From an uncultured Bacteriovoracaceae bacterium (GTDB lineage: Bacteria > Desulfobacterota > Desulfomonilia > UBA1062), in assembly GCA_964513375.1 (NCBI GenBank), contig CAZEMO010000008.1, positions 85,556 to 149,555 on the forward strand: a stretch of 64,000 nt of DNA. Direction: 5' to 3'. Position numbers and translations under genes: made by a program. Below are positions 20,705-60,373 of this stretch, one piece after another. Position 1 is the stretch's first letter. Each line of letters starts with the position of its first letter. The notes below the pieces were generated by a model. That model ran no database searches. It saw only the letters and a list, made by a program, of their open reading frames with translations, and was not told the DNA's origin.

Positions 20705-21430
20705 GTGGTGAGCAATAAAGAATCAAATACAAATACTTGGATTAATGTACTCTACAAATATAATTATCCCTATAATTTGAAGCATTATATGAATGCTTCA
20801 AATCATAATAGTTGGTTCAGTTTATCTAGTAAAACAGGTAACAGAGATGACACAATAAAATTTGAGGATCATTTCAGAAATCATGCAAAAGATGCAATTG
20901 CCCCTTGGCTTGAAGTGATTTTCTGGAAAATGTTTAGCACTGGAATAGATGCAGCAAATGATAGATCTGAAAAAACAGAAAGATTCTTCAAAGTTCAAAA
21001 TACTAACCCTTCCGAATTATGGGATACTTGTAATGACTTTACAAAAGTTCCTACCAAAGAAAATCTAAAAAGAATTATGAGTCTTTTAAATATATATTCT
21101 GGAATAGCTATTGCTATGACTTTCCCTGCATTTGTTAACCCAGAACAATTTCCAATGATAGATAAACACATTGCTTGTTGGATCAATAAAAACTATTTCA
21201 AATTTAATTCATTTATTCCTTCCGAATACCAATTGAGGAAGCAATCTTCACTTGGTAAACTTTCAATTATTGATTATGATTTTTGTAAAAGTTGGATTGG
21301 ATGGTGCAAATATATGGCAGGAAAATTGTCTGAAATTACTGATATTAAATGGAGAGCAAGAGATGTTGAAATGGCTGTATTTACTGCGAATAGAACAGGT
21401 ATAAATCTTGAACCATTAGTAGTACTTTGA
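20705..21430 (+). CDS. hypothetical protein encoded on a low-GC (~33 %) insert
   Basis: GTG start. The composition is strongly AT-rich compared with the flanking genes. I recognised no family. Confidence 0.45.
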   Translation: MVSNKESNTNTWINVLYKYNYPYNLKHYMNASNHNSWFSLSSKTGNRDDTIKFEDHFRNHAKDAIAPWLEVIFWKMFSTGIDAANDRSEKTERFFKVQNTNPSELWDTCNDFTKVPTKENLKRIMSLLNIYSGIAIAMTFPAFVNPEQFPMIDKHIACWINKNYFKFNSFIPSEYQLRKQSSLGKLSIIDYDFCKSWIGWCKYMAGKLSEITDIKWRARDVEMAVFTANRTGINLEPLVVL

Positions 21431-24863: not shown

Positions 24864-25643
24864 ATGCTGAGCAAGAGAATCATCATCTGCCTGGACGTGA
24901 GGAACGGCAAAACAACAAAAGGCGTAAAGTTCCTAAGCAACATCGACATCGGAGACCCTGTAAAAATGGCAAAAGAGTATTACGAGCAGGGAGTGGATGA
25001 ACTGGTCTTTTACGACATAACAGCCTCGTCCGACAAAAGGAACATCATGATAGATGTGGTCGACAGGGTCGCCCGCAACATATTCATACCCTTTTCCGTG
25101 GGCGGTGGACTCCGCACCATTGACGATATGTATCGCGTGCTTGACGCAGGCGCTGAAAAGGTAAGTGTTAACAGTGCGGCGGTCGAAAACCCCTCAATAA
25201 TTTCTGAAGGGGCCCGCGTTTTCGGAAACCAGTGCATAGTCCTAGGAATGGATGCCAAACATGTTGGGATAAGCGCGAAGATACCCTGCGGCTATGAAGT
25301 GTTCATCAACGGCGGCAGAACGCCTATGGGCATAGATGCCCTTGCCTGGGCGAAACATGCGGAAGATCTCGGCGCCGGCGAAATATGCCTTAACTCTATC
25401 GATGCTGACGGTACAAATGATGGCTATGAGCTTACTATAACCAGGATGATCTCGGATAGTGTTGGCATACCGGTCATTGCATCAGGAGGCGCCGGAAGGC
25501 CCGAACATCTGAGGGACGTGCTGTCTGCCGGAAACGCCGATGCCGCGCTTATCGCCTCGATGGTTCATTATGGCACATACACAGTCCGTCAGATAAAGGA
25601 ATATCTCGATAAGGAAGGTATCCCTGTAAGGAAAAAATGCTGA
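24864..25643 (+). CDS. hisF: imidazole glycerol phosphate synthase cyclase subunit
   Basis: Internal start after a [17 protein letters not shown]...[12 protein letters not shown]...SVGGG is the HisF TIM barrel. Confidence 0.85.
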
Positions 25644-26206
25644 TGAAAAAGACCATATTACTTTTCGTGGCTTTGGTAATGATATTCATCTTGGGATCAA
25701 GCGCTTCATATGCTTCCGGTCCGGCCGCATTGAAGCATTCTCCTCCTAAAATGCCTGAAAACAACGTCTACACCGACCCGTTCAGCTACTGCAACTGCGC
25801 CGGAACCATAGACGCTCCGGATAAGAGATATCAGGGAGAAAAAGTGCCCGATTCAATAGTACCAAGCATTCGAAAAGTCATGAAGCTAGGCAGCGACACG
25901 CCTTCCGATTATATAAAACAGACCACGTTCTGGCGCTGCATGGACAGAAAAGTCTTTGTCTGCATGGTGGGAGCAAATCTTCCCTGCAGGGAAAAAGCTG
26001 ATCTGAGAAAAATACCTGATGCTGCCATGAGGGATTATTGCGGGAACAACCCGGATGCGGATTTCATACCTGCCTATGTAACCGGCCGGTCAACCGTTTA
26101 CGAGTGGCGCTGTTCAGGAAAAGTTCCTGCCATATCCAAACAGCTGTTCAAGCCGGACGCCAGAGGCTTCATTTCCGATATCTGGTATGAGCTTCCGGCG
26201 CAGTAG
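25643..26206 (+). CDS. secreted Cys-rich hypothetical protein
   Basis: The start overlaps the hisF stop (TGATG). It has a signal peptide and ten Cys residues. Confidence 0.45.
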   Translation: MKKTILLFVALVMIFILGSSASYASGPAALKHSPPKMPENNVYTDPFSYCNCAGTIDAPDKRYQGEKVPDSIVPSIRKVMKLGSDTPSDYIKQTTFWRCMDRKVFVCMVGANLPCREKADLRKIPDAAMRDYCGNNPDADFIPAYVTGRSTVYEWRCSGKVPAISKQLFKPDARGFISDIWYELPAQ

Positions 26207-28431: not shown

Positions 28432-28636
28432 GTCAGCTAAATCGGAATAGAACCCGCCAGGTATAAATAAATATTTGTTCCTGCCCGAACATATACCATT
28501 TATAATTTACACATGGCGCTCAGGAAAAATTATCAAGCGGACATGCGCGATATCCTCGAAAATTCGACTGTATTCATAAAACAGTTTTCATCCTCAAAAA
28601 ATATGGTTACTATCTGAATCGATCCGGAGGTCAAAT

Positions 28637-29392
28637 ATGAAGGACGCACTTCTCCTGGGTATCTGGAAATACATCATGCGGGTGCCGGGTTTTGCATGGA
28701 AGTCTCAGGTCGGCAGCGCTGCAAAAGAAAACGCCTTCAGGCTGGATTTCATGACTGAAGATCATCACAGAATTCGTGATCTGGCAGTAACAGGGATTGC
28801 AGAAAAAGGCACACCGCTGACGCCGGAATATTTCTCGCAGTCATTAGGTATCGGCATCGCAAGAGTAAACGATATCCTGGCTGAACTCGAACGCCATATG
28901 ACCTTCCTGTTCAGAAATTCTGATGGTAATGTGGCCTGGGCATACCCGGTGACTGCCGACAAAACGCCTCACAGGCTAACATTCAGCACAGGAGAGCGAA
29001 TCTACGCCGCCTGAGCGGTTGACGCGCTTGCGGCGCCCTTCGTGCAGGGGCTTCTAAAAATGAGGGAACTTACGGTAAGTATTGAAACGGAATGCGCGTG
29101 CTGCAAAGAGACTCTTGTAATGGAGGTTGACAGCTCCATGAAATACAGGGTGCTCACCGCAGGAGCGGAACCCGTTGCGTTCGCACCCATGGTTGATTTC
29201 GACAGGCTCGATGAGCCAAGCATCATAAACTCTTTTTGAAAGCTTTCCGTTTTCTTCCGGTCGGAAGAACATGCAAGAAAATTCAGAAAGACAGGCAAAT
29301 GCTCCAAAGGGACCTATTTCAACCTGGACCAGGGCATGTACATAACCCCAATAATACAGGGCGCGCTCTTTGACGTAAACCGCAAAAGATAA
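28637..29392 (+). CDS. organomercurial lyase (MerB) family protein, candidate selenoprotein with two in-frame UGA (Sec) codons at 29012-29014 and 29237-29239
   Basis: GGAGG RBS 6 nt upstream. The single frame aligns with MerB along its length (DGNV ~ DGNI; RIYAA-U-AVDAL ~ RLYAW-C96-ALD99TL; INSF-U-KLSVFF ~ RQSF-C159-CHVHFF). Both TGAs fall at catalytic-Cys positions. A SECIS-like hairpin follows TGA2. Confidence 0.55.
29252..29269 (+). promoter_or_regulatory. candidate bacterial SECIS hairpin (TTCTTCC-GGTC-GGAAGAA) 13 nt downstream of the second in-frame UGA
   Basis: Perfect 7-bp stem with a 4-nt GGUC apical loop. The loop G/U lie about 23-25 nt from the U of UGA, as in E. coli fdhF. Confidence 0.45.
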
Positions 29393-29484
29393 TTTCCGGT
29401 TGCAGCTTTATTTTCAGTTCAACCGGGAATAGTTTATTAACGAGCGCGGCTATTCGGCTTAGGCTTAAATGTCAACGACCATTT

Positions 29485-30380: not shown

Positions 30381-32456
30381 TTATCTGGGGCCAGTCCCTG
30401 TCTTGTAATAAGTCCTCATCGCATTTGCGAAATCCAGTTCCAGGGACTTTCCGTCAAAGTCGATGACGGTCTTTTCGGTTCCGAACTCCTGTGAGCAGTA
30501 TTTGTTGTCAAATCGCTTATAGGGGCCAATATCCACAGGACTGCCGTTTACCGTCATGGGGCCGTCCCATCCTACGCTAACAAGCCCCTGCGACGGCGAC
30601 TGATACGTTACGTCAAAACCTCTGCATTTTATTTTGGCATCTATTCCGGCATTGGTAAGGGCGCTTGTAAACGATTCGAATGAGCCATTCTCGGACATGC
30701 TCCCCATCTCGACGATATAGAAGTTGTGTTTTCCCGGAACCCTAAGTTCTATGCCGTTTTTCTGCCAGAACGGTTTGAAAAATGAGTAAAGACCGACATA
30801 ACCGTCATCTTTGCGGCCGAATACCCAGTGGCCCTTTGTGACGACTTCGTCGAAAGCCCATTTCGGGAAATATGCAAGGTTGTAGTATTCAGGCCCCATG
30901 GCAAGCATGAACAATTCGATCAGAGGCAGTTCGAGATTGCGGTCATACTGGATTATGCCCACGTTTTTATAAAGCGTGGCCCTCGGTTTCCAGCCGCCAA
31001 CATATTCCTCTCCCCTGAGAGTGGGGCCTGAGTTCGTGAAAACCGTGGCATACATATCGAGACTTCCCTGCCATATAAGCTCCTGCATGCTGGACATGCC
31101 CTTCTGGTGGTCCTGAACACCTGAGAGTTGATAGTCCGGCGTACGGTAAGTATATGTGTTGGGCGACTCGAGCATTATCCCTCTCGTCAGGTCGGCAAGC
31201 ATCTTGCTATACCCTGTCGGGTCAGTCAGATGCGCAATTGATGAAACTTTAATAAAAGTTGAAAAATCGTCGTCACTCATCCCGAGATCACTGCTTACAT
31301 CGGCGCCGAGGTTGTATTTGTCCATGAGCATGATGGAACCGTCAACCACATAGGGAGCGACCATGCCTGTCATCGTCCACCAGTATATGATATCTTCCTC
31401 CTTCGAAAAACCGACGTCAAAGCTGGCTGCATCGTCGAGAGACAGGCTCATTCTCTCTTTGTGTTCAATTGCCGGGGCGGCATCTGCTGCAATCTCCTCG
31501 AGTATTGCCGGGGGCACATAGCTGCTGGTGGCAAGGAAGGCAGCCGTAAAATGGCCGGGGTCGAGGTGAGTGCCAATCCCCAGCATGAGCCATGCCGTTT
31601 CATGGGTTGACTCCCTGTTTGGCAATTTGTCTGTGCCTAACCCAACTTCTTTACCATCTTCCGTGCGGCCATGGGCAGTGGCGTATGAGCCTTTGAAATA
31701 ATTGCATGCAAAATCAAAGGCCATCAGGTCGAGCAATATTGAGGCTTTTGCTGATATTTCGACATCGTCAGAGAAGTCCACCAGATTGATAAGTGCAGGC
31801 ATGGTCTCGTTATAGTAGATGTTGGAATGATACTCGGTAAACCCGAATTTTCCCCTGAAGCCAAGCCATGAATTGACCCAGTGCAACGCATGCTCTACAT
31901 GCTGAAGGCCGGTCATGCCTGAATTTGTAAATGTCTCATCGGGATATAGCCTTCCGGCCAGAAGTTCGGCTGTGTTGAACAGAATCTGGTGGTTTTCGGT
32001 CGTGGTTATCGTTTCGGTCTCACCCGGCTCGTCATACCAGTATCTGAAGTTGAGAACAGTAGTTTTCATCTTATCCCGCAGCTCTGTCGGCAGCGAGTTC
32101 GTGCTCCTGTCAATGCAAAGCATTCGGATGATCGCATTCAGCCCGAAATCCGCACAGTCCTTCCTGGCATCGGCCTTTGCGAGCGCTGCAAGTACAGGCG
32201 CTTCTGTTACCGGTTCTCCCTTTGCAACATGAACGACCTGCGCATAAAGGCCCTCACTTAAAAGGGCGTCGATTATATACTGAGATTTGCGCAATTGATA
32301 ACCCTCGCTTGGGGTGATCGGAACAGGCACTGCGATGCTGCTGGAATCTTGCTGAGGCGCAAGGTATTGATTATCCGGTCCGGAATTGTCGTTACCCGAA
32401 CAGCCTATGATAACCATTATTGTTAGAATAAAAGCTAAACCGAAATATTTCCTCAT
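30381..32456 (-). CDS. large lipoprotein, hypothetical (possibly polysaccharide lyase / heparinase II/III-like)
   Basis: Signal peptide with a lipobox (IIGCSG). 691 aa. The family call is weak. Confidence 0.55.
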   Translation of the reverse strand: MRKYFGLAFILTIMVIIGCSGNDNSGPDNQYLAPQQDSSSIAVPVPITPSEGYQLRKSQYIIDALLSEGLYAQVVHVAKGEPVTEAPVLAALAKADARKDCADFGLNAIIRMLCIDRSTNSLPTELRDKMKTTVLNFRYWYDEPGETETITTTENHQILFNTAELLAGRLYPDETFTNSGMTGLQHVEHALHWVNSWLGFRGKFGFTEYHSNIYYNETMPALINLVDFSDDVEISAKASILLDLMAFDFACNYFKGSYATAHGRTEDGKEVGLGTDKLPNRESTHETAWLMLGIGTHLDPGHFTAAFLATSSYVPPAILEEIAADAAPAIEHKERMSLSLDDAASFDVGFSKEEDIIYWWTMTGMVAPYVVDGSIMLMDKYNLGADVSSDLGMSDDDFSTFIKVSSIAHLTDPTGYSKMLADLTRGIMLESPNTYTYRTPDYQLSGVQDHQKGMSSMQELIWQGSLDMYATVFTNSGPTLRGEEYVGGWKPRATLYKNVGIIQYDRNLELPLIELFMLAMGPEYYNLAYFPKWAFDEVVTKGHWVFGRKDDGYVGLYSFFKPFWQKNGIELRVPGKHNFYIVEMGSMSENGSFESFTSALTNAGIDAKIKCRGFDVTYQSPSQGLVSVGWDGPMTVNGSPVDIGPYKRFDNKYCSQEFGTEKTVIDFDGKSLELDFANAMRTYYKTGTGPR

Positions 32457-52475: not shown

Positions 52476-53432
52476 TTATGGGATAAGCCTGTCCTCACAC
52501 CAGTTTTCAAGTGTCCATTCTTCACTCGTTTTGCTCAAGGTTGCAGTTGTTTCGTCGAATGTGACGGTGATTTCGACAACACCATCCTCGTCGGCGTCTT
52601 CATCTTCACTGTTATCCGCATATATTGTAAGGGTTCCGTCAGTCCAGAAGTAATCGCTGTCGCGGGTAATGGATGAACCGTCGACCTCAAAACTGTTGCC
52701 ACCGATACTGAATATGCCTGAAATATCTGATACTTCATCCGAGGACTGATCAAAGTATAAATATGAGAATACGATCTCAAATGTTTCATCATCATCCGTG
52801 TTTGTCACGGTGACCGTGCCGTCAATGGTAAGGCCAGGATAATTTGAATCGGCATCATCCACCTCTACGCTGAACAATGAATATTTGGATTCATAACTAT
52901 CCGAATCATTGACTGTTGTAAGAGAATTCGTTTCGAGCGTTCCTCCAGTAACTACAAGCTCTCCAGTTTCGGCGTCAACAGTTACAATCAAATCAAGCAC
53001 CTTCAGGGTTCCTGAATATGTAATGCTGCCCGCATCAAATCCGCTGAATTTAAGCGTGGCATCGATACTCCAGGATGTTTGACTGGCCAGGGAAAAAGCC
53101 AGGACTCCATATGTGATCCCGTCAGGAAGCTCAATTTCACCCTCATTTTTAAGAGCGATCAGGTCCATATTTGACGGCAATTCACCAAATTCTATATAAT
53201 AATTATAAAGATACGCTTGAAGGCTTTCGTTTGAAATAACCGCTTCCAGGGCATTCATCAGATCGCCGTAGACGATATCATTCATGGGTTCATCCGGATT
53301 CGTGCAGGCATATGTCATAAAGAGTGCTGTGTCATAATCGCTTGACGATGAGGAATCCCCGCCGCATCCGGCAAGAAACATAACGATTACCGCTGCAAAT
53401 AAATAAATCAGCTTATTTTTGTGTATTTTCAT
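52476..53432 (-). CDS. hypothetical lipoprotein, Asp/Thr/Ser-rich
   Basis: Start MKIHKNK. Lipobox LAGCGG. The composition is low-complexity and acidic. Confidence 0.5.
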   Translation of the reverse strand: MKIHKNKLIYLFAAVIVMFLAGCGGDSSSSSDYDTALFMTYACTNPDEPMNDIVYGDLMNALEAVISNESLQAYLYNYYIEFGELPSNMDLIALKNEGEIELPDGITYGVLAFSLASQTSWSIDATLKFSGFDAGSITYSGTLKVLDLIVTVDAETGELVVTGGTLETNSLTTVNDSDSYESKYSLFSVEVDDADSNYPGLTIDGTVTVTNTDDDETFEIVFSYLYFDQSSDEVSDISGIFSIGGNSFEVDGSSITRDSDYFWTDGTLTIYADNSEDEDADEDGVVEITVTFDETTATLSKTSEEWTLENWCEDRLIP

Positions 53433-53779
53433 ATTCCCATCTGCCTTTAAATAATTATTTTTCATATCTCACTTAATTATTTCTTCTCATACATTTATTT
53501 CTTGTCATACATTTTGTCAAATCCCATTCTAAACAAAAGCTCCGTCTATCCTGTTAATCAGGCTAATGTATTATTTTTAAATGAGAATTTCCGTTTAGAA
53601 TTTTCCTGTTCTCCCTGTACATTTCCGGATAAAATACTTGGGGCGATAACTCGCAGGAATCATGTGGGGTCTTAGGTGAACTGCATAAGCGAGAATTGAC
53701 TGATCTGGAATAAAATGATAATTGGTTGGACCATTGACTCAATGGAACAATAACCACAATATTTCAAAGGGGGCTTCAG

Positions 53780-58464: not shown

Positions 58465-59259
58465 CTAAAACTGATAGTCGTACGAGAGAGCGATGGTCCA
58501 GTCCATGCTCCGGCTCGAAAGGCCTTTTAAGACCGAAATCCCGACTGAATTCTGCGGATTAAGGTTTCTTGTATAACTCACTCCCGCAAGAACTCTCGCT
58601 GTGCCGTCTTCAAACTGATCCGGCGTGTATCCCGAGAACTGGACGCTTATCTCGTTTGACTCATCGGGACAGTAATCGAGTTCGGCCTGGAATGAATAGT
58701 TGAAATAATAATCATCTTCTTCTGAATCGGCAAGATATGTCGACCCCAGTGTAAGCGAGGCCGTGAAATTACCGAATCCCCTGCTTGCCTCAAGCCACAG
58801 GGTCGGCTCGGCCACCGCTTCGGCAAATGCGGCTGATCCTGTAGGCAGCTCAAGATAGCCGATAAGCGCCAGATTTACATATTTATCAAAAAAGTCCCAT
58901 CTGAGGCCTAAAGATATATCCGAGATTCCCAGGTCCGGATCCTGATAAGTGACGGTATCGCTTGCGAACTGGATTTCAATTTTATCTGTAATATCCGCAC
59001 TGACATAGACGCCCAGGGCATAATAATCCGCTCCATCCCTCTCTATCTCCACGTAGGGTGCAAGCTCTATCAGATATTTAAAGTTTTGATCATCTCTTCT
59101 GACATCGGGTAAAAGCTGTGTTATCGGCGGCTTGAAGGATTGTTCCACTGCAAATGCATCGTGGCAAAATAGAACAGACAGAATAAGCAATGCCATGAGC
59201 CGTAATGAAGAATATGGTTGCCTGCTTTGGTTATTTAGAAATTCAATCGTTCTTTTCAA
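58465..59259 (-). CDS. putative outer-membrane beta-barrel protein
   Basis: Signal peptide. Alternating-hydrophobic beta-strand pattern with a C-terminal ...YDYQF. The start is uncertain (TTG at 59259, or ATG at 59196). Confidence 0.45.
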   Translation of the reverse strand: MKRTIEFLNNQSRQPYSSLRLMALLILSVLFCHDAFAVEQSFKPPITQLLPDVRRDDQNFKYLIELAPYVEIERDGADYYALGVYVSADITDKIEIQFASDTVTYQDPDLGISDISLGLRWDFFDKYVNLALIGYLELPTGSAAFAEAVAEPTLWLEASRGFGNFTASLTLGSTYLADSEEDDYYFNYSFQAELDYCPDESNEISVQFSGYTPDQFEDGTARVLAGVSYTRNLNPQNSVGISVLKGLSSRSMDWTIALSYDYQF

Positions 59260-59356: not shown

Positions 59357-60373
59357 ATGAAAAAAAGGGCTTTGAGGAGGACAGTCTTGAAAAAAACAGT
59401 AATATTGCTGTCTGTCATTTCAATCCTGCTGACAGCTTCATCTGCATGGGCGGATGTCACCATAGATAGATGGACCAGATCGAATTTCGCCATAGGTTTT
59501 GAATCAACCTCAACCACAAAGATTCAGGGGTTGAAAGAGTACAGCCGCAATAATGTCAAATTTGACAGCAAGCTGATCGGCTATTTTGCAAATGATGCCC
59601 CGATTGTTATCATAACAAGGGTTGACAAAGGCCTGATCTGGAATCTGAACGATAGAAAAAAGACATATATCGAGGCCCCTCTTAGCTCCTTTGATTTTGA
59701 TAAGATGATAAAAAATAAACAGGCAAAGAACAGGGATGAAAAGGCCCCGGATAAAACCAGATACAGGCTCATAAATATTGAATTCAAGGTAAAAATGACC
59801 GGCGCAAAAGAAATCATCAATGGCTTTGACTGCGATGAATACGATGCTACCCTAACTGCAGTGATCGAAGATACGGAAACTGGAGGAAGGCTTACGGAAA
59901 TAATTGAAACGATCCTCTTCACAACACCTGAAACCGGAATGATTATTGAGGTGCAAAATGAAGAGGCCGCATATTATGACGCCCTCTTTAAAAAACTGGG
60001 TCTGGATGGAAAATCAGGAATGATCTTAAGAATACTGAACATGGACAAGGTAAATTCTCCGTTTAAGCTTACAGAGGGCGTCCTGAAAAAATATGCCTCG
60101 GAATTCTCCAGGATCGAAGGTTATCCGATCAGGACTGTCGTTAAATCCCGGACGATAGAGGATGAAAAACAAAAGACCGCCCGTCTGAAAAGTGAGCAGC
60201 AGGAAAACAAGGGCCAGACAAAACAAAAGCAGAAATATGACAGCAGACAAAAAGAGGCCGACAGGGACAAACCAGTGGTATGGTTTACAAGCGAAGTCAG
60301 AAAGATAAGCCTTGACCCCGTCAAGGCGAGCACTTTTGAAATCCCTGCAAAATACAAGAAGATTCAGGATTGA
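59357..60373 (+). CDS. secreted hypothetical protein with Lys/Gln-rich C-terminal tail
   Basis: Signal peptide ending AWA. I recognised no family. Confidence 0.5.
   Translation: MKKRALRRTVLKKTVILLSVISILLTASSAWADVTIDRWTRSNFAIGFESTSTTKIQGLKEYSRNNVKFDSKLIGYFANDAPIVIITRVDKGLIWNLNDRKKTYIEAPLSSFDFDKMIKNKQAKNRDEKAPDKTRYRLINIEFKVKMTGAKEIINGFDCDEYDATLTAVIEDTETGGRLTEIIETILFTTPETGMIIEVQNEEAAYYDALFKKLGLDGKSGMILRILNMDKVNSPFKLTEGVLKKYASEFSRIEGYPIRTVVKSRTIEDEKQKTARLKSEQQENKGQTKQKQKYDSRQKEADRDKPVVWFTSEVRKISLDPVKASTFEIPAKYKKIQD

Follow-up and report, generated by a model that had tools for sequence, protein, structure and literature searches.

A hairpin downstream of the second in-frame UGA codon of a MerB-like gene is very probably a bacterial SECIS element

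Results and discussion

The window, by which we mean the whole 64-kb stretch of DNA analysed here, contains a MerB-like gene (28637–29392, plus strand, as for all features of the gene given below) of 251 sense codons with two in-frame UGA codons and a TAA stop (29390–29392). This locus raises the question of whether the UGA codons end translation, are read as a standard amino acid or are recoded as selenocysteine (Sec), and whether the hairpin that closely follows the second of them (UGA2) directs such recoding. On the basis of its structure, its position, its conservation and covariation, and a constraint that is coupled to the presence of UGA, we propose that the hairpin at 29252–29269 is very probably a functional SECIS element for UGA2, located inside the coding region. 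The first-pass annotation had offered the hairpin as support for recoding at UGA2; that view is strengthened by the alignment of UGA2 to a catalytic Cys, the presence of TGA in relatives, the conservation of the hairpin, its relaxation in Cys-containing forms and the standard genetic code of the window.

The host gene and its relatives

Assignment of the gene was based on its translation, Pfam annotation and a fold model of a family member. The window protein scores 52.2 bits against Pfam MerB (PF03243; cutoff 27), above the gathering threshold, and so belongs to this family. Scores against the NCBIfam models were lower than their cutoffs: 40.6 bits versus 200 for MerB NF033555, 48.9 versus 193 for MerB NF009710, and 47.8 versus 140 for SaoL NF040728, such that no NCBIfam model claims the protein. 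With these scores and no mer operon it falls outside organomercurial lyase MerB proper, and with its SaoL score, no Cys before Sec and no sao neighbors it falls outside SaoL. Evidence for the fold comes from family member P0003 rather than from the window protein: its AlphaFold model (pLDDT 86.5) was compared with the PDB using Foldseek, and the top 11 matches were all MerB or MerB2, with E values of 5e-11 to 7e-8 and target-normalised TM scores of 0.62–0.80.

Sequence and profile alignment to MerB2 (5c17) places the two UGA codons on the two catalytic Cys residues. UGA1 (29012–29014) lies at the Cys96-equivalent position within a U-A-V-D motif, the Asp of which is equivalent to Asp99, and UGA2 (29237–29239) lies at the Cys159-equivalent position within F-U-K. 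The ligand positions Cys96/Asp99/Cys159 would thus be occupied by Sec/Asp/Sec in the window protein, and we infer from the alignment that this site would support catalytic chemistry.

A scan of one genome per species showed that at least 329 genomes encode a relative. Eighty loci were kept, which together with the window form a comparison set of 81 sequences. These loci were retrieved using the peptide pattern D..A.PFVQG, which lies inside the first of two blocks of frozen codons described below; the amino acids PFVQG were therefore ascertained by the search, while codon choice was not, and the second block lies wholly outside the pattern. The 80 loci are mostly labelled Chloroflexota (Anaerolineae) or Thermodesulfobacteriota/delta-proteobacteria, with some Acidobacteriota, Nitrospirota and Bacteroidota, and identities between pairs of proteins span 41–95% (median 56%). 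All 81 sequences have TGA at both positions, separated by 75 codons in 80 of them and by 76 in L053. Beyond TGA2 the frame stays open and conserved for approximately 45–50 codons in the relatives; in the window it runs 50 codons to the TAA at 29390.

At the protein level the window gene is most similar to L001 (CAYNVT010000047.1; 94% identity), which carries the label 'uncultured Bacteriovoracaceae'. The second most similar relative (71%) is from a Desulfomonilia MAG, and the taxonomic label of L001 may therefore be unreliable.

The family as a whole is a Sec/Cys mosaic: U/U forms (all 80 genome loci) occur alongside C/U, U/C and Ser/Cys forms (L081–L083, L086, L087, L089–L095 and L097). Among more distant relatives, position 1 is Glu or Gly in P0065, P0067, P0072, P0121 and P0140, and these have Cys at the codon that contributes to the hairpin loop (Trp/Arg elsewhere). 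The protein P0008 has Trp, presumably encoded as TGA, at both Sec positions and carries FFCSEEHA instead of FFWSEEHA; a TGY codon at this site would turn the GGUC loop into GYUC, a possible natural loop variant.

Anatomy and folding of the hairpin downstream of UGA2

Direct reading of the window around TGA2 gives the codons ...TTT TGA AAG CTT TCC GTT TTC TTC CGG TCG GAA GAA CAT.... A 12-nt spacer (29240–29251), the sequence of which varies among relatives, separates UGA2 from the 5' arm UUCUUCC (29252–29258), formed by two Phe codons and the first base of the Arg codon. The apical tetraloop GGUC (29259–29262) is followed by the 3' arm GGAAGAA (29263–29269), formed by the third base of the Ser codon and two Glu codons. 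The stem comprises 7 bp, all Watson–Crick, and the distance from UGA2 to the first loop base is 19 nt. Counting the U of UGA2 as 1, the loop bases are G23, G24, U25 and C26. The first-pass annotation had described just such a perfect 7-bp stem 12 nt past TGA2, with the loop G and U some 23–25 nt from the U of UGA, and both descriptions agree with the sequence. Folding of 29237–29290 with RNAfold, suggested at that stage as a check, recovered the hairpin in both the MFE and the centroid structure, and the isolated 18-mer has a predicted stability of −7.5 kcal/mol.

Taken as a single sequence, the window hairpin is not clearly beyond chance. Comparison with dinucleotide shuffles gave z = −1.19, with 26 of 200 shuffles folding equally well. 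Perfect 7-bp hairpins number 47 per strand in the window, from which the chance of one starting 8–16 nt past a given TGA is approximately 0.7%. The case that the hairpin is more than chance derives instead from another 84 sequences that carry TGA at position 2 (the 80 genome loci and four forms with Cys at position 1); across these, the hairpin recurs at an unchanged position, its synonymous sites are frozen and one of its pairs covaries.

No terminator-like site with a U-tract overlaps the hairpin, and an Rfam scan of 28600–29450 returned only noise and nothing related to SECIS elements. The window MFE also includes a lower-stem extension pairing 29249–50 with 29271–72. This was rejected as a conserved element: it lies in Ile/His codons without covariation and is unpaired in 22 of 79 distinct sequences. 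In a 50-nt context, the hairpin is found within the MFE of only 57 of the 81 sequences.

Synonymous sites and covariation

The hairpin could be a by-product of protein conservation. The peptide Phe-Phe-x-Ser-Glu-Glu is self-complementary at the RNA level, as UUY pairs with GAR, and any recoding of UGA2 would then be independent of the hairpin. Consistent with this explanation, wobble pairing remains possible with any synonymous Phe or Glu codon, there is no variation in five of the seven stem pairs, and MerB2 has a related peptide, YFSSVEHA. What the protein sequence leaves unexplained is the choice of codons, which we compared with backgrounds taken from the same genes. The two Phe codons (+5 and +6 after TGA2) are TTC in all 81 sequences (162/162; background TTC 62%, TTT 38%), and the first Glu codon is GAA in 81/81 (background GAA 53%, GAG 47%). 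The sole synonymous alternatives, UUU and GAG, would give wobble pairs and are found in 0/162 and 0/81 cases, against backgrounds of 38% and 47%. The Ser codon is only ever TCA (65) or TCG (16), two codons with a combined background of 25%, and the second Glu codon is GAA in 73 sequences (background 53%), GAG in six and GAT in two. With five of the seven pairs fixed, the classical covariation signal comes from a single pair; the fixed pairs are uninformative for covariation and, given their frozen codons, informative for selection.

The informative pair closes the loop. Base 7 of the 5' arm is U in 67 sequences and C in 14, according to whether the codon that it opens is TGG (Trp, 67) or CGG (Arg, 14), and the third base of the Ser codon tracks this base. 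The closing pair is U-A in 65 sequences, C-G in 14, U-G in two and C-A in none (U-A 63, C-G 14 and U-G 2 among the 79 distinct rows). Replacement of Trp by Arg is thus always accompanied by a silent TCA to TCG change, and the pair undergoes approximately eight state changes on a neighbor-joining (NJ) tree. The GGUC loop is invariant in all 85 sequences with TGA at position 2, that is, the 81 and the four forms with Cys at position 1. The RNAalifold consensus is exactly the 7-bp/GGUC hairpin, and 99.6% of helix cells are paired; sliding the 3' partners by 1–3 columns leaves no more than 67% of all cells paired. The examination of orthologues for covariation that the first-pass annotation had called for therefore finds the stem kept in all relatives and a compensatory U-A/C-G closing pair.

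We also profiled codon usage along the gene, taking the 77 alignment columns that conserve a single amino acid with more than one codon. Values of 0.92 or more for the major-codon fraction are confined to 29036–29048 and 29252–29267, with exceptions inside these frozen blocks at a CAA (0.85) and a TCA (0.80) codon; outside the two blocks the fraction ranges from 0.25 to 0.84. The sole other frozen block in the gene thus follows the other UGA. Together, the sequences point to selection on the hairpin at the RNA level and to its conservation in orthologues.

The first block coincides with a putative SECIS for UGA1 (29035–29051; GCCCUU/CGUGC/AGGGGC), suggested by folding, RNAalifold and codon freezing. 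Its general form is G CCC UU/CGUGC/AA GGG C, with AG GGG C on the 3' side in the window, and its codons are nearly fixed: CCC in 80/81 sequences and TTC, GTG and GGG in 81/81 each. Loop bases G31 and U32, counted from the U of UGA1, lie 7 nt further from the UGA than in the hairpin after TGA2.

Cysteine-containing relatives as a natural control

Nine relatives with TGC or TGT at position 2 (L081–L083, L086, L087 and L089–L092) allow the protein and RNA constraints to be separated. Two of these (L081 and L083) came from the representative search, another is L082, and six were among nine matches of a degenerate DNA pattern over metagenomes. The peptide FFWSE(E) is retained in L081–L083 and L086–L092, and since FF[W/R]SEE is also kept in Cys forms, part of the conservation operates at the level of the protein. 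The codons drift once Cys replaces Sec. Phe is encoded as TTT in 4/18 cases in Cys forms versus 0/170 in Sec forms (Fisher P = 6e-5), the first Glu as GAG in 3/9 versus 0/85 (P = 6e-4), and the second Glu as GAG in 5/7 versus 6/83 (P = 2e-4); the closing pair is U.G in 7/9 versus 2/85 (P = 1e-7). As the nine Cys forms represent only about four lineages, these P values overstate the independence of the observations. The hairpins of the Cys forms are correspondingly weaker, and the drift runs in the direction that a SECIS predicts. In all four forms that combine Cys at position 1 with TGA at position 2, the sequence TTC TTC TGG TCA GAA GAA is retained. In light of these synonymous-site data, the explanation of the hairpin as a by-product of protein conservation is largely refuted as we read the sequences, and we consider it very unlikely.

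At the first hairpin, the codons are retained in three of the four forms that have Cys at position 1; in L093 GGG is changed to TCG.

Reading of the UGA codons

An explanation that we judge slightly less likely again is that UGA is read as a standard amino acid instead of Sec, through a reassigned code (UGA as Trp or Gly) or through near-cognate read-through stimulated by the hairpin. Downstream hairpins can stimulate read-through in other systems, and full-length database entries (P0001–P0013) give Trp at both Sec positions. These Trp calls are annotation artefacts: the DNA for P0003 (L098 401–1159) has TGA at both sites, and its translation with table 11 differs from the deposited protein, so the Trp stems from gene calling with code 4/25 (UGA = Trp) on short contigs. 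In the window, TGA ends 22 of 51 long open stretches and is the commonest stop of long ORFs, which excludes an alternative genetic code. Moreover, the UGA positions are Cys in MerB2 and in natural variants, the classic Sec/Cys pattern; Trp or Gly at both MerB metal ligands would be expected to abolish the chemistry; and the loop is a SelB-type GGUC. Least probable of all, and hardly credible, is that both TGA codons are real stops in a decayed or split MerB pseudogene or in three short ORFs, with the hairpin irrelevant or a transcript-stability element: public protein sets do present the family mostly as fragments of 125 or ~200 aa where gene callers end it, besides the full-length Trp entries, and the window holds no Sec machinery, but the codons sit at the exact catalytic Cys positions in 81/81 sequences across phyla with their spacing and an open, conserved downstream frame retained, pseudogenes would show TAA or TAG codons, frameshifts and random positions, and the hairpin lacks the U-tract of a terminator.

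Comparison with known SECIS elements and MerB-like proteins

Turning back to the proposed SECIS, the minimal element of E. coli fdhF spans nt 15–31, begins 11 nt from the UGA and has a bulged U17, essential for E. coli SelB, with G23 and U24 as the critical loop bases (PMC8659212). A general rule for bacterial SECIS elements puts the apical loop at a distance of 16–37 nt from the UGA (PMC10778597). The window hairpin is a stem-loop within the ORF just 3' of a UGA, starting 12 nt after it; its 19-nt UGA-to-loop distance falls within this range, its invariant GGUC loop offers the G (and U) for SelB in all 85 sequences, and its UGA corresponds to Cys in homologues (MerB2 and the natural Cys forms). 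The fdhF sequence used for comparison, TGACACGGCCCATCGGTTGCAGGTCTGCACC, is a 100% match to fdhF in the records listed and occurs with at least 95% identity in 5419 of 5426 E. coli genomes.

Both the fdhF and the window elements consist of a short stem in the ORF just 3' of the UGA, capped by an identical GGUC tetraloop with G and U approximately 23–25 nt from the U of UGA. The match to fdhF geometry claimed in the first-pass annotation holds for the loop but is otherwise inexact: the spacer is 12 nt rather than 11, the loop is offset by 1 nt (nt 23–26 versus 22–25), and the 7-bp stem is perfectly paired, lacking the bulged U17. There is also no conserved lower stem here, with the 13:36 pair among those open in 22/79 distinct sequences. 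As isolated hairpins, the window element is the more stable (−7.5 versus −4.2 kcal/mol). The specific fdhF type, with its 11-nt spacer, 17-nt upper stem-loop and bulged U17, thus does not describe the window hairpin, which by analogy would function as fdhF-type elements do while differing from them in structural detail.

Another point of comparison is the SaoC SECIS (Haft & Gwadz), UUACUUG-GGU-CAAGUAA, which shares a perfect 7-bp stem, a G-rich loop starting GGU and a position approximately 10–13 nt past the UGA. It differs in stem sequence, in its 3-nt loop, in its Firmicutes host and in its location at the end of the ORF.

Among MerB-like proteins, SaoL (NF040728; Haft & Gwadz 2022) likewise belongs to the MerB family, has Sec at the Cys159-equivalent position and is routinely truncated in databases, and it too is found in anaerobes and has an uncertain true substrate. 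The single Sec of SaoL lies within a Cys-Sec dipeptide, and its Cys96 site is still a Cys, whereas the window protein has Sec at both sites and its second Sec, in the context F-U-K, has no preceding Cys; SaoL also belongs to a nine-gene sao locus, unlike the window gene. MerB and MerB2 (PDB 3F0O, 5C17) share the fold, as judged from the P0003 model (Foldseek E of ~1e-10, target-normalised TM 0.74–0.80), and the ligand positions; they differ in having Cys-Asp-Cys in place of Sec-Asp-Sec and are ~17–19% identical, and the window gene has no mer operon.

Proposed mechanism and significance

Following the E. coli and Moorella paradigm, SelB would bind the hairpin and Sec would be inserted at UGA2. 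With a ribosome at UGA2, the hairpin, ~12 nt downstream, would be situated at the mRNA entrance, where its GGUC loop could be bound by SelB carrying GTP and Sec-tRNA(Sec). SelB would then bring selenocysteine into the A site, competing with release factor 2 and allowing translation to continue to the TAA. UGA1 would be served by its own separate hairpin. The predicted product is a MerB-fold enzyme in which the metal-ligating nucleophiles at the Cys96 and Cys159 positions are both selenocysteine, with the Asp99-equivalent Asp retained.

The hairpin belongs to a known class of element, the bacterial SECIS, and novelty lies in its host gene. SaoL is the only MerB-like selenoprotein named in the searchable reviews and preprint, and within the limited literature and curated lists that could be reached, there appears to be no description of a MerB-like family that has a Sec-Asp-Sec site and two in-frame SECIS elements. 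More tentatively, and with slightly more doubt than confidence, we suggest that two dedicated SECIS elements operate in an apparently uncurated, widespread MerB-like family in which both metal-ligating catalytic Cys residues are Sec (U-x-x-D ... U), and that such a diselenol lyase could cleave organomercury or other organometal(loid) compounds in anoxic environments, overlooked by merB surveys because gene callers cut it at 125 aa. A Sec-Asp-Sec MerB-fold enzyme that is common in uncultured bacteria of the phyla listed above would be a candidate for cleavage of carbon–metal bonds in organometal(loid)s, and one invisible to current merB surveys.

The locus also illustrates cleanly, in a natural setting, how the same nucleotides could serve both a SECIS and a protein motif, with Phe-Phe and Glu-Glu codons locked to the synonyms that give Watson–Crick pairs and a Trp/Arg change offset by a silent Ser change. 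A GGUC loop of the fdhF type would be used across distant phyla without the bulged U of E. coli. For annotation, hundreds of genomes carry the gene fragmented or mistranslated with Trp, and recognition of both SECIS elements could lead to correct full-length calls.

Gene neighborhood

No selA, selB, selD or tRNA-Sec gene was found within the window or in the flanking sequence retrieved for relatives, and Pfam annotation of 50 window ORFs revealed no SelA, SelB or SelD and no mer operon. The window genes are mostly housekeeping (gltX, metK, ahcY and pur genes). The neighbors of the MerB-like gene are an unrelated FUSC transporter and cupin protein, with no merA, merT, merP or merR. Six sizeable ORFs have no Pfam match: 30381–32456 (−), 20705–21430 (+), 25637–26206 (+), 52476–53465 (−), 58465–59259 (−) and 59357–60373 (+); one of them, two genes downstream from the MerB-like gene, encodes a protein of 691 aa. 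When the window was scanned ad hoc for further cases of TGA read-through, 92 unfiltered candidates emerged, none convincing.

ARAGORN found no tRNA genes in 45 related loci of ~10.7 kb each (~480 kb in total), a count somewhat below expectation for bacterial DNA. Neighborhood conservation across the loci of relatives is weak, and a mer or sao operon is absent. In nine loci a MerR-type regulator adjoins the gene, eight of them upstream on the same strand and one downstream; nine other loci have a MarR-type regulator immediately upstream in the same orientation. Regulator types were judged by sequence motifs, with additional Pfam MarR support in L093; the regulator loci include L071 4338–4925, L069 4501–4950 and 16 others.
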